In this document: positions 1-25,964 of the stretch, piece by piece | How the letters are laid out: every line of letters begins with the position of its first letter | Position numbering within the stretch: position 1 is the stretch's first letter | IMG/VR virus record: IMGVR_UViG_3300018080_000004 | Direction: 5' to 3' (one strand) | Length of the DNA stretch: 64,000 nucleotides | Source of the DNA: a virus | The notes under the pieces: model-generated | What the model saw: only the letters and a program-made list of their open reading frames with translations | Told to the model about the DNA's origin: nothing | Database searches by the model: none | Translations under genes and position numbers: made by a program

Positions 1-3000
1 GGGGCAAGGCCGCGAGGGACCGGCAGCCCAAGCAGAAGGAGAAGCAGGTCGCCGCGAGGCGCGTGGGGCGCCGGGGGCTCGCCCGTCGGACCGCCGCCGC
101 CAAGAAGTGGCACCAGTCGAGCCAGGGCGCCCGATACCACCGGGCCCTCGGCGACTACAACCGGGAATCGCTCCGTGGCCGGTCCCAGGGGTTCGCCCCG
201 CGCCTGTTCGAGGACGGCCTGGACTACTTCTTCGGTGACATGGTGCTGTGGGCCCTCGACAGCCGGTCCCAGGGGGCCCGCGTGGCGCCCGCCGGGAGCC
301 TCATCGAAGGTCCGTCAAGCACCCCCCACCGGGGTGGCCCCGACCCCCTGGGACCGACCGGGATGGCGGATATGTCTCCGCACGGGGAATTTTCTCCGCA
401 CGGGGAAATTTCCGAGGCGGTGGACCAGCCGGACCTCATCGAGTTCTGGCCGAAGACGGGATTCATCCATGTGGCCTCGACGGACCGGCAGCGGCTCGGC
501 GACGTGGAGCTCGTGTTCAACCGGCATTTCGGGGACCTGGGGGAGTTCGATTCTTTCGGTCCCGTGAAGAAGACGGGGACGGGGTACTACCTTTCGATCT
601 TCGAGCCCCAGGACGAGGACCTCTATTTCCCCACGGAACAGGAGGTGAGGCGAGCGGCACGGTCGGCGGGGCGGGACCTCGAAGGGATCAAGGTGGTGTA
701 CGCCGCGAAGGGGGTGCGGGCGGCCTACGAGGGTCTGGGTGAGGGCAAGTACAGGGTGGACATCCCGGCGAGCGACAAGCAGGCGGGGGCCATGTTCAAG
801 GTGCAGGCGAAGGACGCGGGCATGGGGGTGTACGCCGATCCGAGCGGGAAGTTCCTCATCGTCACGACCGGCGACGCCAAGACCCTGGGCGGTCTTCTCC
901 AGCGCCACCGCCTGGGGGCCCAGCCCATGGAGGCCGTTCTGCGCGAGTGGGAGACCACGCGGTTCGGTCCGCTCAAGGGTGGTGCCGTGGGTGTCTTCCG
1001 GTTCGACTCCTCGGCGGATGCGGGGCGGTTCGAGGCGGCGGTCGAGAAGATCATCGCGGGCTACGACTTGGCGGGCATCTACCGTAAGGACGCTTTCACG
1101 CGGTCGGTGGAGCTCCCCCCGGAGGCGGCGGGTCTCCGTGGCGAGATCGAGGACCTCGCCAAGACGCACCGGGGCAAGGTCTGGGAGGGCGCGGTCCGGG
1201 AGGCGTTCTTCGAGTACCCCCGTATCGCAAACCGTCGTCTTCGCAAAGCCCTGGAAGACTTCCGGGAGGTCGTGGAGCAGCGCGACGGCGAGCAGTACGG
1301 CTACTACCTGGACTCCCTCGTGGCCTACTACACCCAGGGGCGCACCGGGGTCCGCGACGTGAAGAAGCCCACCCCGCGTGCCCCCGGCCTGGACCCCGCC
1401 ACGTGCGCGAAGATCGAACAGGAATTGAAGTCCCTCATGCGAATCGCAGGCGCGACACCCCACGGCGAGTCCCTGGGTGAGGCGGACAGGAGCAGGGAGG
1501 AGATCGCCCGCTGGACCGGTATCATCAAGAAGACGGGGAGCAGGGGCGTGGAAAGACTGCGCCGCTACCTGGGTTCCCTCGCCCTGGGGCGCGACTTCGA
1601 CGAGACGATGGAGGCGTACCTGGAGCGCAAGGGACTGGTGGCCTTCGACGAGTGGGCCCAGGACGTGGTGCACGGGCGCATCGCGGTGGAGCGTCTGGGG
1701 GAGGCCACCACCACCGACTACGAGCCCGCGCCCGGTCTCATCTTCCGGGTGAAGAAGCAGGGGGCCTTCAACTATCTGACCATCCTGCACGGGCCGAGCG
1801 GGACACTCATCCGGCGGGTGCAGCTCCCTATCAAGTTCGTGAGGGACTTCGTGGAGCTGGCGAAGGTGACGCTGGGCAAGGTGGACTGGGACAAGCCTTT
1901 CGATCAGGTGGATATGGGGGCCGCGAGGCGGGCTGTCGGGGAGTACGACAAGTGGGTCGAGCGTATCTCCCCGGACGTGGGCGTTCTCGTGGTGTCGATG
2001 GACGCCCCCATCCGGCGGCGGGATCGGGTGGAAGCGAAGGAGGTGATGGACATCGGGTTCCTCAAGTCCAAGGACCCCTACACGGTGATGTACGCCTGGA
2101 AGCGCCAGGGCCCGGTCATGCTGGCGGTGGTGTCCGGGAAGAAGGAAGCCGAGAGGTTCCTCGACGACATCAAGAATCAGGGCGGCAACGGGACGATCTT
2201 CAAGGGGGACAGGAAGAACGAGTCCCTGGGCGAGGGCATGCAGAAGTACCTCATCAAGTTCTCGTCGGGGGGAACCCAGTCCAGTTTCTCGCGGGAGCTG
2301 ACGACACGGTTCGGGAGCAGGAGCCACAAGCTTTGGGGGACTTCCTTCGCCCCGGAGGGCGGCGTCCTGGCGCGGTATGAGATCGACATCCCGAAGGAAG
2401 AAGTGGAGCGCCTCGTCCAGTACGGGCAGGGGAAGATCGTGGCGCTCACGTGGGAGTCCGTCCTGGACGAGGCCCTTCCCCGCCGTCTGCAAAAGGCCAT
2501 GGACGACTACCTGGACACCGTGCGGAGCCGCTTCGGCGAGTACGAGGATTTCGCCGCCGCCTGCATCATGTACTACACGCAGCCGAAGCACGGCGGCGTG
2601 CAGCGCCCCACCATCTCCGGCACGGGGCTCAGTCCGAAGATCGCCAAGAAGATCGAGACGGAAATTGAGGGGCTCATCCGGATGGCGGGATACACGCCGT
2701 ACGGCTCGATCACCGTGCGACCCGGCCGCACGGAGGGCCTGGACGAGGCCAAGGTAACGGGTCCCTGGCCGAAAAGCAGAGGGCACCTCGCCTTTCTCAA
2801 GGGCGCCCATTCGCCGGAGCCTTACGAGTTCTACCTCGATGCGCGGGGCGAGCTGTGGCGTGCGCCGGTCAGCGCGGTGATCGACATCGACACCGGCTAC
2901 CGGATCGGGCGGTGGGAAGCGCCGAAGCACATGGCGAAGCGGATGTTCGATCAGGCCGTCAAGGCGTTCGAGAGCGTCGGGAGCGCCGTCGAGTACGAGC

Positions 3001-6000
3001 GCCGCGAGATCGGGCGCCTCCGGGAAGAGCTGCGCGTGGCGCTGCAAAGGGGGGACCGGCAGAAGGAGGCGGCGGTCCGCTACGCCCTCGGCATGGCCGA
3101 AGCCGCCCTTGAGATCGCCCTGCGCGAGGCGCGGAGCGGGAAGGACATCGCCGGGGACATCAAGGTGTCCCACCCCGGCGTCGAGGTGAAGGTCTTGCGC
3201 GACCGGGGCGACGACATCCTGCTCCAGGTCAAGGGCACCACGGACGAGGCCGGGATCATCCGAAGCCTCCAGGACGTGTCCGGGAAATACTGGAAGCGGG
3301 CCGGGGGCGACGCCAGGAAGGGGTACAAGTACGCGGTCGCGGACAGCCCCTTCGGCAGGAAGGGAATGGACGAGGCGACGGAGGGGCCGAGGCTCCCCCA
3401 CGACTTCGTGGTGGCGAACCAGCCCACGTGGCAGACCGTGAACGCGCCGGACGGCGGAACGCGGGTCGAGGTCCTCCGGGTGAAGGACTCGAAGTACGTG
3501 GCCGTTCCCGAAAGCGGCAGGCGCAACGCCCGGCGTTTCGCCATCGTCGAAGTCAAGCACGGCGACTACGTGACCCAGGTGAACAACCGTGAAGTGGTCG
3601 GGTGGCTCGTGCGGGCTTTCTACCGCGAGACCGTCGGCGAGTCCCTGGGGGAGGGGATCAATATCCCGAAATACTACGCCTGGGTGAAAACCCTCAAAGT
3701 CGGCGACGAGATCGAGGCGCGGTGGGGCCGGGGCAACCGGGCGCGGGCGCGGATCACCGGGGTGGGCAGTCGGCTCATCACGGCCGCCCTCCTCGAACCG
3801 GTGGGCCAGTGGAAGAAGGGCTTCGACATGACCCTTCCGAAGCCGAGGTCCGGCTCGACGAACTGGGACATCGACGACGGCCCCTTCCCCCTGGACATGG
3901 GCCTCGTGAGCGAGAGCCTCGCCGAGGCGGACGAGTTTGTCCTTCCGGCGGACCCGAAGGAGCGGCCCAAGGTCTACAAGCTCACCCCCAAAGACAAGCG
4001 CCTCCTCAAGCGGACCGTCCACGACGCACTCAAGACCACGTACTTCCGCAGCGCGGGCGAGGCCGTTACCTGGGTGTCCCAGGCCCTCGACAAGATCGGC
4101 TACCAGTTCGGCGGGACCTTCACGGACCGCCTCCAGAACGCACCCGGCTCGGACCTGAAACGGAGCCTGTTCCTCCAGCGGATGACGAACGACCCCTTCT
4201 GGCCGCTCGACGTTACGAACGGCTCGGTCTACCTGACCTTCTACCGGATGGACAGCGGGCGCGTGGAAGTCGTGGGGTACTTCACCGAGGACGTGGAGCG
4301 CGTGGGGGACACCATCGTCGAGGGGATCAATGATCCCTACATCTTCAAGGCCGTGTTCCTCGCGGGCGGTCCGGGCTCCGGCAAGAGCTTCATCGCCAAT
4401 CAGATGTTCGCCGGGACCGGGCTCAAGTTCCTGAACAGCGACCTCGCCTTCGAGTACCTGCTCCGGAAGCGGGACCTCCCGTTCAACATCGACCCGAAGG
4501 ACAATCTCACATACGCGAAGCAGATGGGCGCCAGGGGCCGGGCCAAGGAGATCACCGACCTCCGGAAGGACCTCTGGCTCAACGGCATGCTGGGCCTCGT
4601 GGTGGACGGCACCGGAAGGGACTACGACAAGATCAGCCACATGGCCTCGAACCTCAAAGCCCTGGGCTACGATACGTCCATGGTCTTCGTGAACACGACC
4701 CTCGACGTGGCGAAGCAGCGGAACCTGGAGCGGGAGCGGTCCGTCCCGGAAGAGGTCGTGGTCAACGCTTGGCAGGAAGTCCAGTCGAACATGGGCAAAT
4801 TCCAGGCGTATTTCGGGGGCGACAACTTTGTCATCGTGGACAATAGCAAAGCCCTCGACAAGGCCGGGATCGACCAGATCGGCATGCAGCTCCGGAAGAA
4901 AGCCCTCAAGCTCGTGGGCAAGCCCGTGAAGAACCCGGTGGGCAAGGCGGTCATCGACACGCTCAAGCGGACCGGCGGGAGGACCATGAGCGACCTCGCC
5001 CAGGCCCAGGCCGTCGCGGCTTCGCGCATGCCCAAGTTCATCGGCCACTGCATCGCCGAGTTCGCCGGGCTCTCCGGGTCCGAGATCGAGGGCCTCCTCG
5101 GCGAGGGGAACACCTTCTTCGTCCCGATGGGAGACTCCGCCCCGGCGTACGGCGCGTGGCTCCTCACACGGGCGCACCGGCTCACGGAGGACGAAGAAGA
5201 CAAGCTGACCCCGGAGGAGCGTGCAAGCATCGTGCCCAAAGTCTTCGCATGGCTCCAGGGCGAAGCCGATCCGTGCGACGACGAGTTCCATGCCTGGGCG
5301 GAATCCCAGGGGCTCAACGTGCACAAGGCCGAGGCGGCCGCCTACGACCTCGCCAAGCGGTTCGTGGAGATGCTCACCGGAGGCAAGAGCAAGGGACAGG
5401 TCCCGGCGGGCATCGAGCAAGCTGCCATCGACAAGGGCGTCGCGGTGGAGTACGAGCACACCGGAAACAAGGAGATAGCCCGGAAGATCGCCCTCGATCA
5501 TCTCACCGAGTTCCCGAACTACTACGAAGCCCTGGCGAAGATGGAGGCCGATCTCAAGGCGGCCAAGGGCGGCGCCCCCGCCCCGGCCGAGAGCGTCCAG
5601 GAGAACGTGGGTGTCGTCTACTACAAGGGCGGCAAGGCCGCCACGGTCATGGGCCCTTACCTGACCGTCTCGGACGCCATGCTCGCGGCTGACCGGGTGT
5701 ATCCCCTGCGCGGGAACGAGCAGTGGGAGGACGCCACGGACGAGAACCAGAAGCGCATCACTACGGACGGCTACGTCGAGACCATGCCCTGGGGCGACGC
5801 GGAGGTCATCTCCTCGAAGCCGGGGGCCGTCCTCTACCACGAGGACAGGGTGGGCGCCTCCCTCGACGCGGGGCGCCTACAGGCGCTCCGGGCCACCCTC
5901 GCGGAGCACTTCGCTGGGGACGCCGAGGTCATCGACGAGTTCGTCGGAAGCATCTCGGACACGGGGACGAGCGACGCGGCGGACAAGTTCGCCGTGGAGC

Positions 6001-7193
6001 TCCAGAAGAAGCTCGATTCGGTGGTGCCCGCTCCCCAGATCGTCAAGGTCCAGGCGGATCATCGGTTCGATCCCAGGACCTCCTCGGTGGCAATCTTCTA
6101 CCACGCGGACCCGAACCCCCCGAACGGGATCGTCCACAATGACCCGACCTACACGATCATCCACGTGTGGGGATTCATGAAGGGTGGCGCGGACACGGCG
6201 AAGGTCGAGGCCGAGGCCGGGCTGCGGGCCCGCAAGCCCTATCCCTTCCTCCGGAAGCGGACGGCTGCCCCCGGTGCCATCCAAGACTACATCGTCAAGT
6301 GGTTCCGGACGCAGATGCTCCCGGCCGTCAAGAACACGTCTGAGGGCGTTTTCGTCGAAGCCAAGGACGACATGGAAATCGCTTTCGACATCGTGGCGGC
6401 GGTGGCGTCGGACGCCGGGGCGGACGACGAGACTCTCTACCGGGACCTCGTTCGGGACCCCAAGGCGTTCTTCCGTCGCTGGAAGAAGTACATCCCCAGG
6501 GAGTATTACATCTTCTTCGAGCGGACGGACCTGGACGCGGCCGTCAAGCGGCTCGAAGAGAAGATGCCCCCGTGGGGGTACACCGGCGGCCTGCCCAAGG
6601 GGGTCCCTCACAAGCGGGGCCGCACGGCCTTTCCCAGCAAGCGGCAGATCACCTTCGCCGCCCGGAAAGCCGGGCTGCCCTACGACGAGGCGTGGCTCGT
6701 GGCGCGGGACTACTTCGCCTACGGGATGCCCATCGACAAGATTCTCAAGATGCACAGCGGGATGGACCCGGCCAAGGTTACGGCGGCCGTGGCCTACCTC
6801 CTGACCCGGTACGACCAGCCGAGGACCATGCGGGCCCGGCAGGAGTCCTTCCTGTCCCTGGCGGACCTCTACGGGGAGGCGTGGTACGATGAGGAGCCGG
6901 TGGACGTGTCCAGGTGGCGCGACGCCATCGACCGCATCGGGACCATGCTCAAGTCCAAGCAGTACGTCCAGAGCATCACGGCCGTGGCCGACTCGGCGGC
7001 GGAGGATGCGGTGCGGGAGGCCCAGTCCCTCCGCGACGCTCCGAAGGACGCTTTCCTGACCCTCGCCACGGAGTTCACGGAAGTAGCCCAGCTCCTCCGG
7101 CAGGGCAAGCCCTTCGCCGATGCCCTCCAGCGCCTCATGGGCGTGGAGATCGCCCTCGGCAACGTGGAGGCGGCCCTCGACGAGGAGAGATAG
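1..7193 (+). CDS. Giant modular head-associated polyprotein-like protein, 5'-truncated (>2390 aa)
   Basis: The frame is open from base 3 (GKAARDRQPKQKEK...), so the true start lies upstream of the window. Strong G/C-ending codon bias. More than 20 short modules separated by ESLGE[AG]/ESLAEA/ESVQEN/EGAVREA-type linkers. Confidence 0.85.
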   Translation, partial: GKAARDRQPKQKEKQVAARRVGRRGLARRTAAAKKWHQSSQGARYHRALGDYNRESLRGRSQGFAPRLFEDGLDYFFGDMVLWALDSRSQGARVAPAGSLIEGPSSTPHRGGPDPLGPTGMADMSPHGEFSPHGEISEAVDQPDLIEFWPKTGFIHVASTDRQRLGDVELVFNRHFGDLGEFDSFGPVKKTGTGYYLSIFEPQDEDLYFPTEQEVRRAARSAGRDLEGIKVVYAAKGVRAAYEGLGEGKYRVDIPASDKQAGAMFKVQAKDAGMGVYADPSGKFLIVTTGDAKTLGGLLQRHRLGAQPMEAVLREWETTRFGPLKGGAVGVFRFDSSADAGRFEAAVEKIIAGYDLAGIYRKDAFTRSVELPPEAAGLRGEIEDLAKTHRGKVWEGAVREAFFEYPRIANRRLRKALEDFREVVEQRDGEQYGYYLDSLVAYYTQGRTGVRDVKKPTPRAPGLDPATCAKIEQELKSLMRIAGATPHGESLGEADRSREEIARWTGIIKKTGSRGVERLRRYLGSLALGRDFDETMEAYLERKGLVAFDEWAQDVVHGRIAVERLGEATTTDYEPAPGLIFRVKKQGAFNYLTILHGPSGTLIRRVQLPIKFVRDFVELAKVTLGKVDWDKPFDQVDMGAARRAVGEYDKWVERISPDVGVLVVSMDAPIRRRDRVEAKEVMDIGFLKSKDPYTVMYAWKRQGPVMLAVVSGKKEAERFLDDIKNQGGNGTIFKGDRKNESLGEGMQKYLIKFSSGGTQSSFSRELTTRFGSRSHKLWGTSFAPEGGVLARYEIDIPKEEVERLVQYGQGKIVALTWESVLDEALPRRLQKAMDDYLDTVRSRFGEYEDFAAACIMYYTQPKHGGVQRPTISGTGLSPKIAKKIETEIEGLIRMAGYTPYGSITVRPGRTEGLDEAKVTGPWPKSRGHLAFLKGAHSPEPYEFYLDARGELWRAPVSAVIDIDTGYRIGRWEAPKHMAKRMFDQAVKAFESVGSAVEYERREIGRLREELRVALQRGDRQKEAAVRYALGMAEAALEIALREARSGKDIAGDIKVSHPGVEVKVLRDRGDDILLQVKGTTDEAGIIRSLQDVSGKYWKRAGGDARKGYKYAVADSPFGRKGMDEATEGPRLPHDFVVANQPTWQTVNAPDGGTRVEVLRVKDSKYVAVPESGRRNARRFAIVEVKHGDYVTQVNNREVVGWLVRAFYRETVGESLGEGINIPKYYAWVKTLKVGDEIEARWGRGNRARARITGVGSRLITAALLEPVGQWKKGFDMTLPKPRSGSTNWDIDDGPFPLDMGLVSESLAEADEFVLPADPKERPKVYKLTPKDKRLLKRTVHDALKTTYFRSAGEAVTWVSQALDKIGYQFGGTFTDRLQNAPGSDLKRSLFLQRMTNDPFWPLDVTNGSVYLTFYRMDSGRVEVVGYFTEDVERVGDTIVEGINDPYIFKAVFLAGGPGSGKSFIANQMFAGTGLKFLNSDLAFEYLLRKRDLPFNIDPKDNLTYAKQMGARGRAKEITDLRKDLWLNGMLGLVVDGTGRDYDKISHMASNLKALGYDTSMVFVNTTLDVAKQRNLERERSVPEEVVVNAWQEVQSNMGKFQAYFGGDNFVIVDNSKALDKAGIDQIGMQLRKKALKLVGKPVKNPVGKAVIDTLKRTGGRTMSDLAQAQAVAASRMPKFIGHCIAEFAGLSGSEIEGLLGEGNTFFVPMGDSAPAYGAWLLTRAHRLTEDEEDKLTPEERASIVPKVFAWLQGEADPCDDEFHAWAESQGLNVHKAEAAAYDLAKRFVEMLTGGKSKGQVPAGIEQAAIDKGVAVEYEHTGNKEIARKIALDHLTEFPNYYEALAKMEADLKAAKGGAPAPAESVQENVGVVYYKGGKAATVMGPYLTVSDAMLAADRVYPLRGNEQWEDATDENQKRITTDGYVETMPWGDAEVISSKPGAVLYHEDRVGASLDAGRLQALRATLAEHFAGDAEVIDEFVGSISDTGTSDAADKFAVELQKKLDSVVPAPQIVKVQADHRFDPRTSSVAIFYHADPNPPNGIVHNDPTYTIIHVWGFMKGGADTAKVEAEAGLRARKPYPFLRKRTAAPGAIQDYIVKWFRTQMLPAVKNTSEGVFVEAKDDMEIAFDIVAAVASDAGADDETLYRDLVRDPKAFFRRWKKYIPREYYIFFERTDLDAAVKRLEEKMPPWGYTGGLPKGVPHKRGRTAFPSKRQITFAARKAGLPYDEAWLVARDYFAYGMPIDKILKMHSGMDPAKVTAAVAYLLTRYDQPRTMRARQESFLSLADLYGEAWYDEEPVDVSRWRDAIDRIGTMLKSKQYVQSITAVADSAAEDAVREAQSLRDAPKDAFLTLATEFTEVAQLLRQGKPFADALQRLMGVEIALGNVEAALDEER
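4323..4985 (+). other. P-loop kinase module (AAA_33/Zeta-toxin-like) inside ORF1
   Basis: GINDPYIFKAVFLAGGPGSGKS Walker A, FLNSD, LVVDGTGRDY, MVFVNTTLDVAKQRNLERER lid motif. Confidence 0.8.
5230..5570 (+). other. DUF5661-like module inside ORF1
   Basis: DDEFHAWAE..G...HKAE followed by KGVAVEYEHT..KEIARKIALDHLTEFPNYYEALAKME, which matches my recollection of this phage domain. Confidence 0.65.
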
Positions 7194-7208
7194 CCCAGAG
7201 AGGTAAAG

Positions 7209-11863: not shown

Positions 11864-12602
11864 GTCTCGGCTCGTTCCGATCCGGTCGCTCAAGCCGAAC
11901 TCGTGGAACCCGAACATCGTGCCGAACGACGTGCTCGTGTCCATCGTGGCGGGCATCCATCGGCACGGGTTCGTGGGCTCCATTCTCGTGTGGAAGGGGC
12001 GCGACATCATCATCGACGGCGAGCACCGCTGGATCGCCGCCAAGAAAGCCGGGCTCGCCCAGATTCCCGTCATCGAGCTTGACGTGGACGAGGCTACGGC
12101 CCGCGAGCTGACCATCGCGTTCAATCAGAAGCGCGGCTACTTCGATCCCGACAAGCTGACCGACGTGGTGCAGTTCATCGCCGAGACGACGAACGCGGCC
12201 CGGAAGGAGCTCCAGGTCATGCTCGGCTTCTCGGCGAAGGAGATCGACGAGATGCTCCACGACGCGGCCTCCGAGGCCGAGAAGGAGATGGCCGGGAAGA
12301 TCAAGGGTGAGGTGCCCAAGGCCGGGGGTGGCGTGAAGGTCAACACCGCTCCGCTCCCTCCCCCTCCGGACGACGACGACCTGGAAGCGGTCGCCGACGA
12401 CACGACCGCCCCGGCGTACGGCGCGGAGACGGTCGCCGAGGCGAGCCCGACCGGGAAATTCCCCTTCACTTTTTACGCGCCGACGATAAAAGACTACGAG
12501 CGCATGCGCGAAATCTTTTACGAGGACGGCAAATTCTCATTCACGAAGCTGAACGAGATCGTGGAGGCTGCTATCGAGACAACCCAGCCCGCCGCAGAAT
12601 AG
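11772..12602 (+). CDS. ParB N-terminal-domain protein
   Basis: LKPNSWNPN...GFVGSILV...IIIDGEHRWIAAKKAG. The start at ATG 11772 is inferred. Confidence 0.8.
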   Translation: MKKTTKSKGSSKKPSGASAPGGNGAPSIHDKSRLVPIRSLKPNSWNPNIVPNDVLVSIVAGIHRHGFVGSILVWKGRDIIIDGEHRWIAAKKAGLAQIPVIELDVDEATARELTIAFNQKRGYFDPDKLTDVVQFIAETTNAARKELQVMLGFSAKEIDEMLHDAASEAEKEMAGKIKGEVPKAGGGVKVNTAPLPPPPDDDDLEAVADDTTAPAYGAETVAEASPTGKFPFTFYAPTIKDYERMREIFYEDGKFSFTKLNEIVEAAIETTQPAAE

Positions 12603-12624: not shown

Positions 12625-12999
12625 ATGACGAAGGGACGGCATATTCTCGTGGACCTCATCCAGGTCCCAAAGGACGCCCTCGCCGACGCCGACAGCGTGG
12701 TCGAGCTCATGAAGCGGGCGGCCAGACAAGCCGGAGCAACGGTCCAGGGCTCCCTCTGGACGCGCCTCGATCCGCCAGGGTTCGCGGCCGTCGTCCTCCT
12801 GAACGAGAGCCACATATCGCTTCACGTGTACTCCGAAGAGCAGACGGCCGCCCTGGACGCTTTTTGCTGCGGAAAGGCCGATCCGAGGGTGGCCGTGGAG
12901 ATCATCTGCTCCGAGCTGGGAGGGATCATCACCAACGCGGAAGATAGGCCCCGGTTCCTGGAGCGCCCCCCAGGAGAAGATCAAGAAAAATCTTCTTGA
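12625..12999 (+). CDS. speD: S-adenosylmethionine decarboxylase proenzyme (short prokaryotic pyruvoyl type)
   Basis: G(R)HILVDL N-terminus, GAT, VVLLNE|SHISLHVY self-cleavage site, LDAFCCG with the catalytic Cys. Confidence 0.9.
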   Translation: MTKGRHILVDLIQVPKDALADADSVVELMKRAARQAGATVQGSLWTRLDPPGFAAVVLLNESHISLHVYSEEQTAALDAFCCGKADPRVAVEIICSELGGIITNAEDRPRFLERPPGEDQEKSS

Positions 13000-16100: not shown

Positions 16101-19100
16101 CGATCTCGGAAACTACTACATCGACGGGAAGGGACCCAGGCCCGACAGAAACGTGCGGGCCAAGACGACGTACGATTTCGATGCGGGGTGGGCCGAGGAG
16201 GTCGAGAAGGAAGCCATCAAGGTTCTCCGGAAGAACGGCATCGCCGTCCGCGAGGGTCTCGGCGAGGCGAAGGAGTACGCTCTGTGGGCCAAGCCTACGG
16301 GCGAAGACGGACCACTGAGCCAGAAGCTCCTCCTCGGCGGCCCGAACGTCACCAAGCAGGACGTGAAGAAGGTGATGACCCTCGCCGCGAAAGAGGGGTG
16401 GCACGACTTCCGCATCCAGGTGATCGACCTCTCGAAGCCGTTCAACGCCAGTCAGGCGTTCGTGAACGCCATCGACATGCGGGCCGTGGACCGGATCATG
16501 CGCGGTGAGGGTGTGGGAGTGTCCACCCAGGACATCCTCCAGTCCATCGCCGACGGCGTGGCCGAGCATCTGGGGCGCCCCGTCGCGGTCGAGGTGGACG
16601 CCATCGGCGGCGGCCTCTGCCGGGGCTACGTCGAGCCCACGTCCGCCCTGGAGGTCTTCGCCGAGGCGCTGACCCACCTGGGCGAGGCCGAGACGTATCG
16701 GACCACGAAAGTCGTGGCGCTCTACGGTAAGGGGCGTGACCAGATCAACCTCGAAGTGGGCACCGTGCTCAAGGACATGGGCGGCGGTAAGTACAAGGTC
16801 GTTTCGGACACCTTCGGGAAGGGCCAGATCGGGACACTCTCCGACGAGGGGAAGAAGGGCCTCGCCTCCGAATCTGTCGAGGTCGTCATCGACCGGAACG
16901 AGTCCATCTTCCGGGCCATCGGCCTACCCCTCGCCTTTGGCGCGGACGTGCAGGGAGGCAAGGCGGTCGAGGCGCTCAGCGCCGAGGCCCTGGGCGAGGA
17001 CAGCCTCTTCGCCCCCACCAAGGTGAAGCCCAAGGGCGAGGAGGACAACCCGTCCAACCGGGCCGCCAAGGCCGGAAAGGCCGTCCTGAGCAAGGGCGGA
17101 TCGAAGAAGGCCGCCAAGGACCCCAAGACCGTGAACCGGGACGACTCCGGCGACAAGGCCGGGGGCAAGACCCCGAAGACCGTCCCCACGGACGCCAGCG
17201 GCGGACCGGGGACCTCCGGCGAGGCCGACCCGGCCGCCGGATATTCCAAGGCCACCGTGGGCGTGAAGGGCAGCCTCTTCACGGTCATGGGCAAGAAGAA
17301 GGGCATCCCCGGTCCCAAGGCCCAGGGCGGCGAGGCCAGCGGCGCGGTGGTGACGCCGGGCGTGGACATCAAGTCCTTCGAGGCCCTGTGCCCCCACTGC
17401 TCGAACAGCGTCAAGGAGAACGTCCTCCGGCGCTACGCCCCGCGCCTCGTGGAGCAGGACCCCGTGTCCGGCGGCGGGCAGGCGGCCACCTCCCCGGCGA
17501 ACGACAAGCCGGGCAGCGTCGAGGCCCCGCCCGGCGCGGCCTCCACCCCTCCGAAGAGCGAACCGGCCAAGGAGCCGGAGAAGCCCACGGAGATGGAGCC
17601 CACGAAGAAGGAGCCCGACCAGGAGAAGGGCGGCCCGACCCAGGGCCTCGTGTGCCCCTTCTGCGGGAAGGAAATCCCCAGGGACGTGCTCAAGGGCATG
17701 ATGGGCGAACTCCTCGCCCAGCTCGCGGCCCAGCTCCAGCAAGGCTCGACGAAGCCGCCGGAGACAAGCGGCCAGCCGGAGGGCGAACCCGAAGAGGAAG
17801 AGCCGGAAGAGGAAACCCCGGCCGCCCCGGCGGAGCCCCCGAAGGAAGCCCCTGAGACTCCGGCGGGCGAGACGCCCCCGGCGGCACCCCAAGCCGAGAA
17901 ACCGAAGGAGTCGTGGCTCAGGGAGAAGGCTCCCAAGCTGCTCGGAGCGCGTCTGACCGCCGACGACTGGCGCAAGCTCGCTCCCGAACTGGGGAACGCC
18001 ACGGCAGACCGCCGCAAGCGTTTCCTCAACAGCTTCGTGAGTGGAGACGCCGCTTTGGACGTTTACACGTCTGGAGGGGGATCGTCGTCGATCAGCCTCG
18101 GAGGGAAAAGCAACGCCAAGGCGCTGAACAAGCTCTTCCAGGACAGGGGCCTCGACGTGCGCGTGGAGTCCGTCCAGGAGGCCGGGCGCACCGACTTCGT
18201 GAGCGAGTTCGCGGGCTTCCAGATCACCTACTACAACGCGAACGAGGGCTTCGACGCCTACGACGACCAGGAACTCCAGAACGCCATCGAAGCAAGGTTC
18301 CCTGGAAGCTTCAAGGGGATGGTGGTGGACACGGGCAGGTACTTCCTCGTGAAGGTTCCGGTGAATCAGGCGGCCAAGTTCCGCCAGATGATCTCCCAGC
18401 AACTCCTCAAGGTTCAGACGCCCGCCTATTTGTCCGCGTCGGCACGTTCCCAGGTCTACCACCAGGGGGTCCTCCGCCTGACCGAGGCGGGGCTCTTCGA
18501 GGTCCTCGAACAGCGGACCGCCCCCGTCGGCACCGGCGAGCCCGGCGGCCAGATCGTGTTCTCCACCGACGTGAACGCGGCCGGGCGCCAGGGCATCCTC
18601 GGCAAGCTCGTGAATTGGTTCAAGACCAGGATCAATCGGGTGATGTCCACCTCGAAGGTGGGCGAGGTCCTGGGCAAGGCGGGGAAGGAGTTCGGCTACT
18701 CCATCGGGCGTACGTTCCGTGGACGCTACGTGGACGCCGAGGGCAAGACCTACGACGAGAAGAGCTTGAGCGTCGAGATTCTCGGCGTGCCCAAGCAGTT
18801 TCTCCTCAAGGTCGGCGAGGCCCTCGCCAAGGCGTTCGAGCAGGAGGCCGTTCTCGTGCGCTCTTACGTGGACCAGAAGCCCCTCTTCGTCTACGCCGAG
18901 AGCCTCGGAGAAGCGAGGGACATCACGGTCGAGATGAATCGCTACGGCCACCTCGAAATCTCCGACGGCCGCAAGTCTCTCTACGTCCAGCGCGACTACG
19001 ACGTGGACAGCGTGCTCGACAGCCTCACGAAAGAGGAACAAGAAGAAGTGCGGCAGGGCTGGGAAGTTACGATCAAGTCGCGGGAGCCTCGATACTCGAT

Positions 19101-20568
19101 CTTCCAGGACTACGTGTCCATGGGCGAGTCGAAGCATCTCGTGGGCGAGCTGGGGGTCGGCGTCGAGGTGGACGGGCGGGAAGTCCCTGCCGGGGTCCGT
19201 GTCCGGATTCTGGACAGTCATCGAGGGAAAGCCCAGGTGGACCTCGGAGGGCGTGTGGCTGAGGTGGACGCGGACAACGTGCTCGTGTACCCCGACGAGG
19301 CCACTGTCGAGGCTTGCCTCGCGGCCCTGGAGCGCGGGGAATCCTTGGGCGAAGTCGCCAAGCGGCGCCTGACCTCCATGTCCAGCGCGGTCCGTCTGAG
19401 CGCCTTGGGAGAGGCAACGGAAGGATCGGCCGGGAGGTTCCTGACCATGTACTTCCCCAGCGTGAACGCCTGCGCGACGGCCAAGTCGTCCATCAAGGCG
19501 CTGGGGAGCAAGATCATGGAGGGCACGGAGCTCTCCTTCCAGGCGGAGCCCTTGAACGGGGAGGCCGCCCGCATCCGGAGCATCGCCGAACGCCTCGGCG
19601 GGGCGGTGGTCCGAACCTCGTGGCCGCTCCGGGTCGTGGCGGAGCAACTCGACATCGACACCGACGGGGCGGACACCGGGGAGGTGAACAACCTCTTCCA
19701 GGGTGCCCTCGCCTCGATCAAGGGGGCCCGCGACATGCTCATTCAGGCTCAGACGGGCGACATGGCCCGTGCGGTGGCCCTGCTCAAGAGCATGGGGGCG
19801 AAGGGGAAGGTCCTCACGGCCATCCAGAAGGTGGCGGACACCATCGAGGACCACGGGAACACCATCAAGGACCTCCTCGTGGACCTGGACAAGGCCCACG
19901 ACGTGTTCTCCAAGGCGTACCCCGACGCGGGGAACGGCAAGGAAGCCGCCCCGGAGAACGGGAATGGCGAGGCTCCGCCCGCCGAGCAGCCTCCGGCCGA
20001 GGCGCCCCCCGCCAACGGCAACGGCGAGGCGCCACCTCCGGCCAACGGCAACGGCAACGGCGAGGCGCCTCCGGCCGCTCCGGCGACCGGGAACGGCGAA
20101 CAGCCGCCCCAGGCCGCGCCCACCGAGGCCATCAATCGCCTCCTGGGGGAGATGCGCCGGTCGAGGCACTGGAACCTCATCCGATACTCGCTCCACGAGG
20201 GCGACTACGGGACCTTCGGGAACTTCGTCCGGGTCGTGAACCCGAACGTGACGGCGGCCCAGGTCGCCGAACTCTACGAAACCATCCAGGAAGTAACCGA
20301 GATGGAGCTGGCCCTGGAGGCCGGGATCGTCCACGGCGCGAAGTTCCTCGCCAAGGGCGACATGGAGATGCCCGGAGAGATCACGGGCCCCACCATCGGG
20401 GGGCAGGAGACGCCCCGAATCCTGGGCGGCCAGACCATCAAGATCAAGGGCCTCTACTACGGCGAGGACGGGAAGCTCCGGGTCAACGTGTTCGAGCCGC
20501 TGGAGATGACCCTCTACGCGGACGACATGATGACCGCCATCGAGAGCGGCCAGCTCGTGGCCGATTAG
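13123..20568 (+). CDS. Giant modular head-associated polyprotein-like protein (2481 aa)
   Basis: GTG after AGGAGG. Modules separated by EGLGEA/ESLGEA/ESLGEV/ESVQEA/EGAVRED linkers. Contains acidic and Pro-rich low-complexity tracts, two CxxC motifs, and a YPMSNAKQARNALARA segment resembling DUF6582. Confidence 0.85.
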   Translation: MPGKAALAFRIYCSLSASPKPVSEFSLLDDKSLLTALAESGAHLEEDLFSALGERARRWVRDAVLHFEPFDLREVDTTGKVDFDEFWSFPTEDKARSFAAGLPGNVEKEVRDNIVGFRGTLEEPIEQKAIAAGGQPSSYLEFHSAINIQATEADLNLPARLCARYNAHDVRTLPAAIPSEHLRPQRENFAKFISLLETVEPYDPADAVVEKFVKVPWESELLDHLLADIPSTGINPSELQERLHSIVNYLPRTLLALPPSAYTSRLGENVALALLEFIHWAFPGVAEMDPDPAGTEVDGGDPSNPSNRAAEPGASVPSREEQDDEDGDEEDDEEEPEQEEQDEEPDDEEDDEEEMGERRLREKVQIEPNYALVYFDHGDQVKLMQAAQADGYVKRGIGDIDGLLDWLHGVHRINYVGSMSPKGLGGLALYLPGDQLRTFRKLLGEIGIQESSTEIIRKDSITEWEPFVPSGPSPKERAIEFGIQNPDSSNMGFHPEHAKNPFHNILTGAGLDYSHSVVVGHGREDYRLHHAYRLNRDFAIGVYPSKSGAWLWEVSSSSRGRGAGKTPQDLAKYLKNALKKFGEGAVREDLYKEFPGTYGASEEKAMTWAREMARKYRKPFYVYTLGRSYFADESPSGQAVLQVKVNPSGTASDYYESVESLKMAPRTGRAQERLSRIRDMVLKEYTPREGEHTPKQRKHGGSNYVYPPTDKDPYGRYPMSNAKQARNALARAGACDKQSPWMKARGVSCAELKKRVNNAVKKEYPSIEVGEGVVFERQDTERVVQQLFQKYNAKDYFGLQGADQRSIDKQLAFLNAVGSEIASGSISDKTRRMLIDRNNKLMRELFYLITRVDIRRVNRNAAETAISSWEATGESVVWEAYPEGDTPISLVFPGGNADTAREWADEWKGLGYIKSYTIGAEGDGVRLDIVSNNPAQVRIAALMLGDYIEPTDPAYGTPSEGVVEDRSSAWNALRSFASETRRMDGEQYADFVYDLGNYYIDGKGPRPDRNVRAKTTYDFDAGWAEEVEKEAIKVLRKNGIAVREGLGEAKEYALWAKPTGEDGPLSQKLLLGGPNVTKQDVKKVMTLAAKEGWHDFRIQVIDLSKPFNASQAFVNAIDMRAVDRIMRGEGVGVSTQDILQSIADGVAEHLGRPVAVEVDAIGGGLCRGYVEPTSALEVFAEALTHLGEAETYRTTKVVALYGKGRDQINLEVGTVLKDMGGGKYKVVSDTFGKGQIGTLSDEGKKGLASESVEVVIDRNESIFRAIGLPLAFGADVQGGKAVEALSAEALGEDSLFAPTKVKPKGEEDNPSNRAAKAGKAVLSKGGSKKAAKDPKTVNRDDSGDKAGGKTPKTVPTDASGGPGTSGEADPAAGYSKATVGVKGSLFTVMGKKKGIPGPKAQGGEASGAVVTPGVDIKSFEALCPHCSNSVKENVLRRYAPRLVEQDPVSGGGQAATSPANDKPGSVEAPPGAASTPPKSEPAKEPEKPTEMEPTKKEPDQEKGGPTQGLVCPFCGKEIPRDVLKGMMGELLAQLAAQLQQGSTKPPETSGQPEGEPEEEEPEEETPAAPAEPPKEAPETPAGETPPAAPQAEKPKESWLREKAPKLLGARLTADDWRKLAPELGNATADRRKRFLNSFVSGDAALDVYTSGGGSSSISLGGKSNAKALNKLFQDRGLDVRVESVQEAGRTDFVSEFAGFQITYYNANEGFDAYDDQELQNAIEARFPGSFKGMVVDTGRYFLVKVPVNQAAKFRQMISQQLLKVQTPAYLSASARSQVYHQGVLRLTEAGLFEVLEQRTAPVGTGEPGGQIVFSTDVNAAGRQGILGKLVNWFKTRINRVMSTSKVGEVLGKAGKEFGYSIGRTFRGRYVDAEGKTYDEKSLSVEILGVPKQFLLKVGEALAKAFEQEAVLVRSYVDQKPLFVYAESLGEARDITVEMNRYGHLEISDGRKSLYVQRDYDVDSVLDSLTKEEQEEVRQGWEVTIKSREPRYSIFQDYVSMGESKHLVGELGVGVEVDGREVPAGVRVRILDSHRGKAQVDLGGRVAEVDADNVLVYPDEATVEACLAALERGESLGEVAKRRLTSMSSAVRLSALGEATEGSAGRFLTMYFPSVNACATAKSSIKALGSKIMEGTELSFQAEPLNGEAARIRSIAERLGGAVVRTSWPLRVVAEQLDIDTDGADTGEVNNLFQGALASIKGARDMLIQAQTGDMARAVALLKSMGAKGKVLTAIQKVADTIEDHGNTIKDLLVDLDKAHDVFSKAYPDAGNGKEAAPENGNGEAPPAEQPPAEAPPANGNGEAPPPANGNGNGEAPPAAPATGNGEQPPQAAPTEAINRLLGEMRRSRHWNLIRYSLHEGDYGTFGNFVRVVNPNVTAAQVAELYETIQEVTEMELALEAGIVHGAKFLAKGDMEMPGEITGPTIGGQETPRILGGQTIKIKGLYYGEDGKLRVNVFEPLEMTLYADDMMTAIESGQLVAD
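18511..18900 (+). other. Putative T3-type SAM lyase (SAMase) module inside the 2481-aa protein
   Basis: RGRYVD...YDEKSLSV...LAKAFEQEAVLV...LFVYAE parallels the T3 gp0.3 pattern as I recall it (GCYRE...EEKTVRV...LACNEWEQDCVLV...LVYAK). Bounded by VLE|Q and YAE|SLGE|A. Confidence 0.65.
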
Positions 20569-20917: not shown

Positions 20918-20966
20918 ACCGTGTGAACGCGGCACTTCGCCGCCGGACTTTTTGCAGGAGGTCAAG

Positions 20967-21680: not shown

Positions 21681-21767
21681 GGGTCGTGCGGGCGCTTCGA
21701 GAACCGATGAGGGTCGGCCCACGGTCCGCCGTGGGGCGCTCCTGTACTCTTTCAACGGAGGGATCAG

Positions 21768-22592: not shown

Positions 22593-22601
22593 GAGTAGGC
22601 T

Positions 22602-23048
22602 ATGCCTGTACCGGCCCTGAAAAGTCTGGCGAGCAAATCTGGGAAGCCCTTGGCCCAGGTCGAGGAGCTCTGGGCCAAGGCCAAGGCACGGGCGGCAGAG
22701 GAAGGGCACAAGGAAGACTACGCCTACATCATGGGCGTCTTGAAGAAGATGCTCGGACTGGGGGAACGCTACTCGCCGGAGGACGCTATCCTGACCTCGG
22801 CTTTGCTGGGGCAGGAGGTCGCCCAGAAGCTTCTCATGGAAACCATGCCTGCGGGCATCCGCCAATCGCTTTTTCAGAAGTACGTGAACATGGAGCTCCA
22901 GTGGAGGCGGAGGCTTTCGGGCCGTGAGATGAACTGGAACTTCTTCCTGCGGTCTCTCCGAGAGGCCGTTATGATCCTTCTCAACTGGGCGTCCGGTGGG
23001 GAGGTCAAGGAAAGTTCCGGTTCGGAGGACATGCGTGGGGTCATCTAA
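22602..23048 (+). CDS. Head-module hypothetical protein
   Basis: MP...A.KSGK...VEELW.KAK.....DYAYIMGVLKKMLG, a helical module I recall from large-phage head clusters. Followed by an LGE site. Confidence 0.7.
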   Translation: MPVPALKSLASKSGKPLAQVEELWAKAKARAAEEGHKEDYAYIMGVLKKMLGLGERYSPEDAILTSALLGQEVAQKLLMETMPAGIRQSLFQKYVNMELQWRRRLSGREMNWNFFLRSLREAVMILLNWASGGEVKESSGSEDMRGVI

Positions 23049-23434
23049 TGGCCGATCTCAAGCTGCCAGACATCCGGCAGGAAAAGGTGGTGGGTCTCCA
23101 CTACGAGCCGGGCCGTGGGCGCGAGATCGTGGTCATTCAGCTACCCTCGGAGGAGGGATCGAGCACGTACCGGATCAATCTCCGCGAGCCGGAGCACTAC
23201 CGGTATCTTGCCGACCTTCCGAATGGGCGAAGGATCATAGACATTCTCCGGATAGAGGGACACCTTGCGGTGGTCCCCGCCACCGGTGAATACTTGAAAC
23301 TGGAGGATCAAGATGCCGCTGCTTCTTCAGGACTCAATGCCGCTGTCGTTCAAGCTCTTGGAGCGTTCCGAAGCGGCAGATGGCCGCGTCCACGTCCGTG
23401 GGAGGTTCCAGCACTGCGACCTCAAAAACCGTAA
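23048..23434 (+). CDS. Hypothetical protein overlapping the protease start
   Basis: TAATG coupling to the upstream gene. The last 122 nt overlap the protease gene in another frame. Confidence 0.6.
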   Translation: MADLKLPDIRQEKVVGLHYEPGRGREIVVIQLPSEEGSSTYRINLREPEHYRYLADLPNGRRIIDILRIEGHLAVVPATGEYLKLEDQDAAASSGLNAAVVQALGAFRSGRWPRPRPWEVPALRPQKP

Positions 23435-25964
23435 CGGTCGCATCTACCCCCGTTCCGTGTGGGAGCGGCACCTTCGGTCGGACGCCGACTTCATGAAGTC
23501 CATCCGGGATGGCCGCGTGTTCGGCCACCTGGAGCACCCCGACGACGGCCGGTCCAACCTGAACCTTGCCGCCATCAAGATCGAGGGTCTGGAGATCAAG
23601 CCGAACGGCGAGATCATCGGCGAGCTGTCCACGCTCTCGACCCAGGCGGGGAAGACGGCGGCGGCGCTCTTCAACGATGGCCTCAAGATCGGCATCTCCT
23701 CCAGGGGGCACGGTTCCGTCCAGAAGAACGGGGAAGGGATCGACGAGGTGCAGGAGGACTTCGTGCCGGAGGCGTTCGACCTCGTGGCCGAACCTTCGAC
23801 ACCGGGGGCCGACCTCGTGAAGGAAGCCCTGGACAAGTACGTCAAGGCGGAGGCTCTGACAGAGGGGAAAATCCCGGAGGACGTACAGCGGCGCGTCCGT
23901 CGGGAGAACGACCTCGCCATGCTGACCTCCAGGCTGGAGACCATGGAGCGCCTCGTGAAGGCGAAAGCGACGACCTCGGAGATGGTCCACGAAGCTTCGG
24001 ACCTCCTGTTCGACCTCCACAGGAAGTTCAAGAAGACCCTCCGGGCCGACGAGTTCGTGAATCTCGAAGAGCGCATCGTCTCCGTGAAGGAGTTCTCGCG
24101 GGCCTCCATGCCGGAGGACGACGACATGAGCGTCGGCAGCGGCATGTTCCAGGGTGAAGAAGACGACGACCTCGACATGGGCTACGACGAGCCCGAAGAC
24201 GAGGAGGGGTGCGCGACGCCCGGCCAGCGCATCCGCTCCGGCGGGCGCGGGCGCGGGATGGCTCGCGGCGGGGGACGCGGCCCCATGGGGCGCCCCTACG
24301 GCGAGCAGGACGACGAGCCCGACAACGGAGACGACGACGAGGAGATGCCCGGCGAGGAGGAGTGCGGCCCCATGTACCCGGAGATGCGCGGCCGAGTCCG
24401 TTCGCGGGGCGAGCAGGACGACGACGGCTGGACCGACGAGGAGGAGGACGATTTCGACTACGGCATGGACGCCGACGAGTACGAGAGCGTCGTGCGGCGC
24501 CGCTGGCGGAGATACGTGAAGGAGCGCCGCCGGATGGCTCGCCGCATTGCCCTTCGGGAGGTGGCCGATACGGCCGCCGCCGACGAGCTCGTCCTCTTCA
24601 TCGAGAACGACGGCCAGCTCTACCGGCAGCAACACCAGCCCATCCAGAAGAACCTCATCACCAAGTGGGCGAAGGGCGTCTACGACTCCCGGCTCGCCGT
24701 CAAGCTCTTCGGCTACCTCGTGGACAACGGCGCCAAGAAGTACGCCAAGGAGATCGGCGACGGCCAGCCCTGGAATCAGATGTTCGACCGGGACACCCGC
24801 ATCCGGGCGGCCGAGCTGCTCCGGGATTCCTTCGAGGTCTCGGCCAAGGAAGGCGAGTTCGCGGACTACCTGCCCAAGAAGTACGCGGGCTTCGTCCCGG
24901 AGGGGCGTCGCCGTAGGCGCGTACGGGAGCGAGTGCGTTACTCTTCCAACGATGTAGAGACGTACTTTGGGGCGGAAGACCCGGCGCAACTGCTGGATGG
25001 TCGTCCGGTCAAGGTGATCGCCAAAGAATACTGCGATCAGTTTCCGCGTATGTTTGGAGAACCCGCAACGCGACGGGACCGGGAAATAGTATTGTCCATC
25101 TTGCAGGACGCGCAAGATGCGATGGGGGAGCGCCGGGTACGTGAGCAGGCCACGGCCGACCTCTCCCACGAGATCGAGGTCAGCATCGACCTCTCCGACC
25201 TGACCCCGGAGCAGCGCGAGAAGTTCGACGTGTTCCGGACAGGCGAGCCCCTGGAGACCATGGCGACCGTCATCAAGGCCGCGCTCCCGGAGACCCTCGG
25301 CATCGAGGACTGCCACGGCGAGTGGGAGGGGGACAAGATCGTCATCGAGATCGAGTTCACCGGCAATCCCAAGCAGGTGGCGAGCGCCGTCTCCGACGTG
25401 ATGGGGCAGCGGGTCAAGCTGGAATCCAAGATGCGGCCCACGGGCGCGGCTCCTGCCGGATTCCATCCCGACGCGGCCGGGCTCATTCAGGGACTCCGGG
25501 ACAGGTGCCGGGCGCTCATGAGCGAGAACGCCAAGATGGAGACGGAGAACCGGCGCCTCCGGGAACTCGGCGACGCCATGGCCGAGGTGCACCGCCGCGA
25601 GCGGCTCCAGCGGCGCCAGGAGGAGATCATCCGGGACTACCCGGCCCTCCAGGCCGCCCTCGTCGAGCTGAACAAGGCCCGGACCGTGGAAGAACTGGAA
25701 GAGAAAGCCGGGGTCTTCCTGGGCATCCAGGGCGTTACCGTGAACTTCCGGCGTCCCGTGAAGGACTCCGGCAACGGCAAGAAACCCAAGAAAACCGAAA
25801 GCGCACCGAGTCAGGGGAGCACCAGAGTGCAGGAAGGCGTCCCTCGTCCGGGAGAGCTGGGCGGGGGCACGACCGTCACCGACGGGAACGCACGCACCAA
25901 GGGGCCCGTAGAGGAGAGCGAGACGACATTCAGTCGCCTCGGCCGCCACTACCGCACCCGCTGA
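23313..25964 (+). CDS. Prohead maturation protease (T4 gp21-like) fused to cargo modules and a scaffold-like coiled coil
   Basis: KNRNGRIYP, FGHLEHP (His), GISSRGHG (Ser), FDLVAEPST (Asp). GGAGGA SD. About 650 aa C-terminal extension. Confidence 0.93.
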   Translation: MPLLLQDSMPLSFKLLERSEAADGRVHVRGRFQHCDLKNRNGRIYPRSVWERHLRSDADFMKSIRDGRVFGHLEHPDDGRSNLNLAAIKIEGLEIKPNGEIIGELSTLSTQAGKTAAALFNDGLKIGISSRGHGSVQKNGEGIDEVQEDFVPEAFDLVAEPSTPGADLVKEALDKYVKAEALTEGKIPEDVQRRVRRENDLAMLTSRLETMERLVKAKATTSEMVHEASDLLFDLHRKFKKTLRADEFVNLEERIVSVKEFSRASMPEDDDMSVGSGMFQGEEDDDLDMGYDEPEDEEGCATPGQRIRSGGRGRGMARGGGRGPMGRPYGEQDDEPDNGDDDEEMPGEEECGPMYPEMRGRVRSRGEQDDDGWTDEEEDDFDYGMDADEYESVVRRRWRRYVKERRRMARRIALREVADTAAADELVLFIENDGQLYRQQHQPIQKNLITKWAKGVYDSRLAVKLFGYLVDNGAKKYAKEIGDGQPWNQMFDRDTRIRAAELLRDSFEVSAKEGEFADYLPKKYAGFVPEGRRRRRVRERVRYSSNDVETYFGAEDPAQLLDGRPVKVIAKEYCDQFPRMFGEPATRRDREIVLSILQDAQDAMGERRVREQATADLSHEIEVSIDLSDLTPEQREKFDVFRTGEPLETMATVIKAALPETLGIEDCHGEWEGDKIVIEIEFTGNPKQVASAVSDVMGQRVKLESKMRPTGAAPAGFHPDAAGLIQGLRDRCRALMSENAKMETENRRLRELGDAMAEVHRRERLQRRQEEIIRDYPALQAALVELNKARTVEELEEKAGVFLGIQGVTVNFRRPVKDSGNGKKPKKTESAPSQGSTRVQEGVPRPGELGGGTTVTDGNARTKGPVEESETTFSRLGRHYRTR

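Follow-up and report, generated by a model that had tools for sequence, protein, structure and literature searches.

The window analysed here, a 64,000-nucleotide stretch of DNA from a virus (IMG/VR record IMGVR_UViG_3300018080_000004), is the structural region of an uncultured myophage and carries two giant genes just upstream of, and co-oriented with, its prohead protease and capsid genes. These are open reading frame (ORF) 1 (3..7193; its 5′ end is lost at the window edge) and ORF6 (13123..20568; 2,481 amino acids (aa)), which, like all features located below, lie on the + strand. Both giants are chains of unrelated small modules, and a double-glutamate linker, E-[SG]-[LVI]-x-E with A, G or S as the next residue, recurs at the module boundaries. 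This linker is most likely a clade-specific recognition peptide situated in flexible linkers, and on the evidence of sequence the giants can be read, with a probability of roughly 0.55, as prohead cargo polyproteins that are cut by the S77 protease encoded downstream. The complete ORF1 protein (P0007; 2,678 aa, L025:1949-9982) was retrieved from the phage's own contig of 127-131 kb.

The original prediction had described a recurring double-Glu linker in both genes, and its linker coordinates were all correct on re-examination. Exact matches begin at 1467 and 18898 (ESLGEA), 2220 and 3639 (ESLGEG), 3912 (ESLAEA), 5589 (ESVQEN), 16252 (EGLGEA), 18166 (ESVQEA) and 19339 (ESLGEV), and looser six-residue forms begin at 1185, 2454, 6342, 15742 and 17908. 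ORF1 has seven strict and four looser sites, and ORF6 has five and four respectively. The frequency of the linker is far above chance, as the strict pattern E[SG][LVIM].E occurs seven times in ORF1 and five times in ORF6, compared to 0.3 and 0.7 expected from shuffled sequences. It is missing from nearly every other window protein, with four occurrences in the remaining 15,414 residues (Fisher P = 2.5e-5). When a small residue is required at P1′, the position following the predicted cut, nine sites are found in the 4,877 aa of the giants and one in the 15,414 aa elsewhere, and overall the motif is enriched about 10- to 28-fold in the giants. An unbiased scan of 4-of-5 residue patterns placed E.LGE (9 vs 0.25 expected, P = 8e-12) and ESL.E at the top for the window giants, and in the giants of G001, the closest relative, the same scan ranked ESV.E among the leading patterns that are not of low complexity.

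At 28 of 37 sites in four phages the second Glu is followed by A, G or S (background 30%, P = 1.3e-8), and this position was outside the search pattern by which the 37 sites were found. The codons used at the sites vary (TCC or AGC for Ser; CTG, CTC, TTG or CTT for Leu; GAG or GAA for Glu), indicating that selection acts on the peptide and not on the DNA. The possibility that the linker is a DNA recombination site was rejected on the same grounds.

Five independent lines support ORF1 and ORF6 as chains of autonomous modules with linkers at their boundaries. An exhaustive HMMER search with residues 485-1600 of P0007 returned 145 proteins, more than 100 of which are free-standing proteins of 52-140 aa, with each family corresponding to one module. 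The first and last residues of these homologues were projected onto P0007. For module A (P0007 776-849; 1482..1703), the 29 free-standing proteins (median 73 aa) have projected ends at 774 and 840, and the predicted cuts fall after E775 (ESLGE↓A, the arrow marking the cut) and E849 (ERLGE↓A). Module B (P0007 1198-1272; 2748..2972) has 32 free-standing homologues (median 74 aa) with a projected N-terminus at 1198, directly behind the predicted cut at E1197 (EGLDE↓A). Module C (P0007 1407-1499; 3366..3653, counted from its G-M-D-E↓A boundary to ESLGE↓G at 3639-3653) has 20, and their projected C-terminus is 1494 compared to a cut after E1499 (ESLGE↓G), with the N-terminus near G-M-D-E1406↓A. The free-standing members stop short of the motif; P0013, for example, ends in ...AEITGE. 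Module E, a helical hairpin (P0007 1276-1325; 2982..3131), has the 52-aa free-standing homologue P0152 and occupies another position in the chain in G001. A single MAFFT alignment of all module homologues stacked unrelated families together and was therefore not used.

Further evidence comes from relatives of the phage. Capsid-based searches identified G001 (capsid 93% identical) and G002, G003 and G004 (54-60%), and protein searches added two more, L035 and L036. The linker recurs in the closer relatives: the G001 giants contain 15 sites compared to one in the remaining G001 proteins, and single giants of L035 and L036 contain five each (0.41 and 0.28 expected). In G003 and G004 the proteins are smaller (947-1,573 aa), their linkers are of the PA or KPEE type, and no motif recurs. 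Among relatives the giants are mosaics, 42-80% identical in patches only, with blocks that are absent, swapped for others or shifted between the two giant genes, and their N- and C-terminal regions are conserved at 55-80% identity. A full-length search with ORF6 matched only itself and one relative, and word-index homologue searches with two ORF6 modules found nothing. When contigs of four other metagenomes were placed on the region to examine cassette variation, only short contigs of low depth and unreliable joints were obtained.

The points at which homology breaks off coincide with the linkers. A comparison of the giants from three phages gave 68 distinct internal breakpoints, of which 21 are no more than 10 aa away from a site (4.9 expected with random placement), and a count of 21 was reached in none of 10,000 randomisations. 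A clade-specific module of approximately 90 aa, m90, is present in five copies, all of which end in a strict site; the copies in the window and G1_D, four in all, have a site matching the pattern at the upstream end too, the G1_A copy having only a looser I-R-E↓G there. In the L035 homologue of ORF6 an m90 unit is missing exactly between its two sites, leaving the merged linker ...PSEG-ALRE↓QKEYALW. Similarly, a cassette of approximately 100 aa in ORF6 (15433..15759, bounded by EGVVFE↓R and ESVVWE↓A) differs in content in all three phages, and its flanks are conserved, ending in [VI]-x-E↓A before AYPEGDTP.

Genes also divide and join at a linker. The homologues of ORF1 and ORF2 (7209..9827; 872 aa, a separate gene here, lacking the linker motif) are fused in G001 into a single 4,064-aa frame with the junction EGMLTGE↓A, which is where the window has a TAG stop and a new ribosome-binding site that split the two genes. 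Such gene fission and fusion, together with exact cassette loss at linkers, indicates that the modules work as separate units. At 7191-7211 the two genes are in the same frame with TAG and five codons between them, and a GAGAGG ribosome-binding site precedes the ORF2 ATG. Programmed stop-codon read-through joining them was considered unlikely, as ORF2 has a ribosome-binding site of its own and the frames of the two genes differ in L035.

The sites and modules are distributed along both giants, with at least 11 linker-delimited segments in ORF1 and nine in ORF6. In ORF1, EGLGE↓G (729..743) is followed by the looser EGAVRE↓A (1185..1202), which is the N-terminal boundary of m90 copy 1 (P0007 683-775; 1203..1481), and this copy terminates in ESLGE↓A (1467-1481) ahead of module A. 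Module D is closed by ESLGE↓G (2220..2234), and the run from ESVLDE↓A through m90 copy 2 (P0007 1106-1197) to EGLDE↓A occupies 2454..2747. ESLAE↓A (3912..3926) stands immediately before the module leading into a P-loop kinase module (4347..4850), and the looser EGLLGE↓G (5088..5105) is the exact end of a homology block common to G001. A DUF5661 module (5436..5546) precedes ESVQE↓N (5589..5603), which is kept in L035 as ESVQE↓D, and the looser EGVFVE↓A is at 6342..6359. In ORF6, an m90 copy (aa 965-1048) lies between EGVVE↓D and EGLGE↓A (16000..16266), the looser ESWLRE↓K (17908..17925) is at the end of a low-complexity tract, and G001 homology (there ESIEE↓R) begins exactly at ESVQE↓A (18166..18180). 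A weak SAM-lyase-like (S-adenosylmethionine lyase) stretch (ORF6 aa 1860-1924; 18700..18912) is closed by ESLGE↓A (18898-18912), and a further site is ESLGE↓V (19339..19353).

The original prediction had also asked that predicted structures be compared with the linkers. In an AlphaFold2 model of P0007 1100-1510, based on a consistent 58-row alignment (mean predicted local distance difference test score (pLDDT) 66), the four sites at 1105, 1197, 1406 and 1499 are all in coil with pLDDT below 50 and lie between folded units, the first two being the linkers on either side of m90 copy 2. In a model of ORF6 583-1201 the m90 copy is the sole confident unit, and confidence is low at both of its flanking sites. 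A fold search of the ORF1 model in the AFDB clusters gave template modelling (TM) scores of 0.19 or lower and nothing usable.

The modules also turn up in some twenty other proteins of several modules each (approximately 550-4,200 aa) from unrelated metagenomes, essentially without the motif, which suggests that the motif is a lineage-specific linker and not part of the modules. In the other giants that were inspected, the module flanks are mostly rich in P, E, T or K. The suggestion that the linker is part of a repeated homologous domain was rejected, since the flanked modules are unrelated to each other, the motif is not included in the free-standing homologues, which stop ahead of it, and it is missing from homologous chains elsewhere.

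Several of these matched giants are polyvalent proteins, the giant multi-domain proteins of phages and conjugative elements that are predicted to be injected (Iyer et al. 2017, PMC5512222), and some such proteins (N4 virion RNA polymerase, ArdC and TraC1) are transferred unprocessed (PMC5512222). ORF1 and ORF6 might likewise be polyvalent or virion proteins that stay uncleaved, the linker serving as a repeated docking element for the scaffold or inner capsid, or as a preferred flexible hinge. We regard this as unlikely, because a plain hinge needs no fixed five-residue pattern with a P1′ preference, and the inspected chains elsewhere have low-complexity flanks of the P/E/K type. Moreover, the pattern matches the specificity of the neighbouring protease, and the fission, fusion and exact cassette loss described above mark the modules as separate units.

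That protease (23313..25964; 883 aa), the candidate for cutting the linkers if the giants are prohead cargo, is encoded 2.7 kb downstream of ORF6 and directly upstream of the gene for the gp23-like major capsid protein (26009..27466; Pfam Gp23, E = 9e-23). Its first approximately 230 residues form a T4 gp21-type domain (Peptidase_S77 at residues 25-167, E = 1.4e-13; phrog_207, E = 1.7e-38). When aligned to T4 gp21 (PDB 5JBL), its GHLEHP and GISSRG motifs supply His and Ser at both positions that read Ala in that chain, which we take to be the catalytic pair mutated in the crystal construct. The protein carries a charged C-terminal extension of approximately 650 aa, probably scaffold-like, and [LIV].E occurs 26 times in the protease including this tail (16.7 expected).

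The original prediction had pointed to the same pattern at the end of the capsid propeptide. This is borne out: the capsid has L-D-E↓T at 26258-26266, and L-x-E↓T-[SD]-R is present in four relatives at the point where conservation begins; this is the likely capsid maturation site. T4 gp21 cleaves after L/I-x-E, including at a Glu-Ala bond, and phiKZ gp175 cleaves at S/A-X-E (PMC9026906). The linker, in which P3 is aliphatic, P1 is Glu and P1′ is small, also has the form expected for a gp21-type protease, as had been proposed, and such a protease is encoded beside the capsid gene. Predicted gp21-type cleavage motifs are present in the giants, and they are enriched there specifically in the extended form.

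A second peptidase candidate lies between the giant genes. ORF3 (9815..11863; 682 aa) consists of a ParB/Srx-like N-terminal domain and a C-terminal HELGH zincin, and its product, instead of S77, could cut the linkers before packaging, inside the head or after injection. The HExxH motif is kept in the window, G001 and L035, so that HExxH protein and linker occur together in all three phages that can be judged, and G003 and G004 have neither motif-rich giants nor HExxH in the corresponding region. Domain release by a metallopeptidase has also been proposed for polyvalent proteins in which one is embedded (PMC5512222). On the other hand, the hydrophobic P3, Glu at P1 and small P1′ match S77 specificity and the capsid L-x-E↓T, and ORF3 has no Pfam metallopeptidase match at E<0.01. 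The S77 proteases of G003 and G004 are themselves strongly divergent (39-42% identity), and therefore the correlation with HExxH cannot discriminate between the two enzymes. Cleavage by the zincin is in our view distinctly unlikely.

With regard to ORF3 itself, its ParB/Srx-like domain matches phrog_2859 and phrog_11358 (a 3,431-position profile), and its Pfam match (ParBc_2) is weak and below threshold. The L035 homologue is 1,108 aa long and has two HExxH motifs, and in G004 the ParB-like part is embedded in a protein of 1,573 aa.

The modules that can be recognised in ORF1 are the P-loop kinase (Pfam AAA_33 and Zeta_toxin; phrog_12810, E = 1e-44) and DUF5661. For families A, B, C and E, Pfam gave nothing at E≤1 and PHROG nothing better than E = 0.03, and no Pfam match at E<0.01 was found for the ten free-standing homologues scanned. 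When modules A and B were compared with cultured phages and plasmids, the single match was to an archaeal virus. Two free-standing members have usable genomic context, and both are in tight arrays of 50-120-aa genes; one of these, a homologue of module A, is approximately 1 kb from a gene for LPD29, a polyvalent-protein-associated domain, and the other belongs to an archaeal virus.

At least three families of small free-standing proteins (approximately 62-125 aa; among P0010-P0152) recur in metagenomic viruses, with the consensus sequences ..EIERW..I....G..RLR.YL.S..LGR.F.E, KSKGH.AF...YE.Y.D..G.LYRAP.SNVID..TG.RIGRWE and ANQ.EW..VEGV.VLRVKDS.Y.A.P. In ORF6, the stretch at aa ~1797-1930 (18511-18912), which ends in ESLGE↓A, may have a SAM-lyase fold of the T3 gp0.3 type, to which three weak indications point in agreement: an Atlas score of 0.88 (191-193 shared features), a match to phrog_2226 at E = 0.004 and one to PF23780 at E = 0.038. 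A PDB sequence search with this module gave no match. A SAM decarboxylase-like gene (12625-12999) lies 5.5 kb upstream of it.

The nature of the modules bears on whether they are cargo at all. The giants could instead be sacrificial core or scaffold proteins that the prohead protease cuts and whose fragments leave the head before DNA packaging, given that T4 gp22, gp67 and gp68 undergo degradation at many L/I-x-E sites (PMC9026906) and that the giants contain long acidic and low-complexity tracts. This appears highly improbable, as the modules are homologous to widespread free-standing proteins found in arrays of small accessory genes, and enzyme-like domains (a kinase and possibly a SAM lyase) are present. 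The modules are also shuffled rapidly between relatives with 93% identical capsids, which is typical of conflict genes and not of scaffolds.

As prohead cargo polyproteins, ORF1 and ORF6 would be late-expressed polyvalent proteins of a phage type which, with ORF2, each form a chain in which roughly twelve or more small autonomous modules are strung together. The chains would be co-assembled into the prohead core, where the conserved N- and C-terminal regions of the giants could act as a prohead-targeting element. The gp21-type (S77) protease would then cleave behind the second Glu of each linker, as it would the capsid at L-D-E↓T, and the freed proteins would stay beside the DNA within the head and probably pass into the host together with it. 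The predicted products would include a zeta/AAA_33-type kinase, the DUF5661 module, a possible SAM lyase and several uncharacterised families. That the giants are cut and by which protease, that they are packaged, and that the products are ejected and act as effectors are points that we infer.

The cargo polyprotein proposed originally is partly upheld, in its module anatomy, its linkers at boundaries and the gp21-type form of its sites, but not in a general enrichment of [ILV]-x-E or in a spacing of 50-150 aa. Sites are in fact 79-588 aa apart, and some of the longer segments contain extra boundaries such as L-G-E↓A and M-D-E↓A. Several observations weigh against the proposal. The count of generic [LIV]-x-E sites suggested as a check gave 18.7 per 1000 in the giants compared to 16.1 per 1000 elsewhere, and [LIV]-x-E[AGS] differed non-significantly or marginally between the giants and other proteins, so that only the extended motif carries the signal. 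The junction of modules B and E, which has no strict site, was modelled as a single continuous helix, showing that some module boundaries are not linkers, and in the ORF6 model, which was built from a 3-sequence alignment (mean pLDDT 44), most sites are unreadable. No T4-like leader or common targeting domain was found as a prohead-targeting element in ORF1 or ORF6, and only m90 is common to both. The portal gene is outside the window, and in G001 it is approximately 65 kb from the capsid gene, so the head genes do not form a compact T4-like cluster. ORF1 and ORF6 are separated by ParB and SAM-decarboxylase genes, the products of which are not necessarily virion proteins. The distribution of HExxH among the relatives set out above counts on the same side.

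The closest known class to the giants is the polyvalent proteins of Iyer et al. (2017). As in that class, the giants string together unrelated small domains (A-E, m90, kinase and DUF5661), amounting to the many-domain make-up (2-15 or more domains in one polypeptide) by which polyvalent proteins are recognised; they stand beside virion genes, in the phage context expected of such proteins, and their domains are shuffled rapidly. A zeta-like kinase and a ParB-plus-metallopeptidase neighbour are also present, the ParB-plus-HExxH protein here being beside the giants and not embedded in them. No Pfam LPD or metallopeptidase family reached threshold among the window proteins. Iyer et al. proposed domain release through an embedded metallopeptidase and drew the analogy to viral polyproteins explicitly (PMC5512222). 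The difference is that the linkers inspected here all carry a sequence-defined site of the prohead-protease type, while homologous chains elsewhere do not. A literature search found no description of regular linkers of this type between the domains of polyvalent proteins.

In T4, diverse anti-restriction internal proteins are loaded via a short targeting sequence, and approximately 1000 molecules accompany the DNA (PMC3012670). The system here resembles T4 IPI-III and Alt in having an S77 protease, a gp23-like capsid and Glu cleavage in L/I-x-E, often before Ala (PMC9026906), and in T4 this anti-defence cargo is loaded in the prohead core and injected with the DNA (PMC3012670, PMC9026906). However, each T4 cargo protein has a gene to itself, is cut once and bears a 10-residue targeting sequence at its N-terminus, whereas approximately two dozen modules would here be carried in two or three translation units, needing many internal cuts, with no T4-like targeting sequence.

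The inner-body and ejection proteins of phiKZ, 201phi2-1 and SPN3US offer a further parallel, in that a gp21 homologue (gp175 or gp245) cleaves many head proteins behind the Glu of a short motif, and some propeptides contain several sites (PMC9026906, PMC10052503). Their S/A-X-E motif lacks the P5-P4 extension of this linker, and in SPN3US 13 of 14 cuts remove N-terminal propeptides, unlike the dissection of a domain chain proposed here. Known prohead-protease substrates of T4, phiKZ and SPN3US lose N-terminal propeptides and are not dissected into many independent proteins.

The Dar proteins of P1 (DarB, DdrB) are head-packaged anti-restriction proteins. DdrB has a ParB-like domain and a C-terminal metallopeptidase and is processed before incorporation (Iyer et al., PMC5512222), and ORF3 is likewise built of these two parts. 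P1 is not known to have a motif-linked polyprotein, however, and the ParB match of ORF3 is weak. Finally, there is a likeness to polyproteins made by RNA viruses of eukaryotes, in which one translation unit with repeated short protease sites gives independent products; there is no protease or domain homology between the two, and the products here would be virion cargo instead of replication machinery.

The genes for the S77 protease, the capsid protein (gp23-like), the tail sheath, the tape measure and the baseplate wedge are on one strand, and the real genes have the + orientation throughout, with a GC content at third codon positions (GC3) of 0.75-0.95 (ORF1, 0.91) in DNA of 65% GC. The source DNA has been seen solely in sediment and seawater metagenomes, and the closest cultured phages have capsid identities of just ~24-27%. 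Between ORF3 and ORF6 are a ParB_N-domain protein (11919..12602; 227 aa) and the SAM decarboxylase-like protein (12625..12999; 124 aa). Upstream of the window, the N-terminus of ORF1 (L025:1949-2800) is Cys4 zinc-ribbon-like followed by an Arg/Gly-rich basic tract. ORF6 contains a 35-residue Asp/Glu run, a Lys/Pro/Gly-rich tract with two CxxC pairs, and NGNGEAPP repeats (14100-14230, 16900-17900 and 19990-20170 in the window). Downstream, a collagen-like tail-fibre protein (32094-33851) has very strong PHROG matches over several stretches, and a glycosyltransferase-like gene (36179-37177) is present within the structural operon. Two large structural-region proteins (41483-44584, 1,033 aa; 59282-61300, 672 aa) had no PHROG match, and the first of these had no Pfam match either.

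A broader interpretation, which is tentative and held at somewhat less than even odds, is that a clade of environmental myophages has turned small accessory genes, which stand separately in arrays in other viruses, into late polyproteins loaded into the head, a portable five-residue site being both the cut point that would release approximately two dozen co-injected proteins and the boundary of exchangeable cassettes. If the giants are indeed cut and packaged in this way, they would represent a bacteriophage counterpart of the RNA-virus polyprotein strategy, used for virion-delivered effectors. The domains of polyvalent proteins, whose separation has so far only been guessed at, would here be separated at defined linkers by the capsid maturation protease. 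Giant phage ORFs of this clade could be divided into their functional units with the pattern E-[SG]-[LVI]-x-E↓[AGS], and the small free-standing viral families (more than 100 cluster representatives) would become probable factors of the first minutes of infection. Such a system would also constitute a natural design for loading many proteins into a T4-type head by means of one or two carriers.

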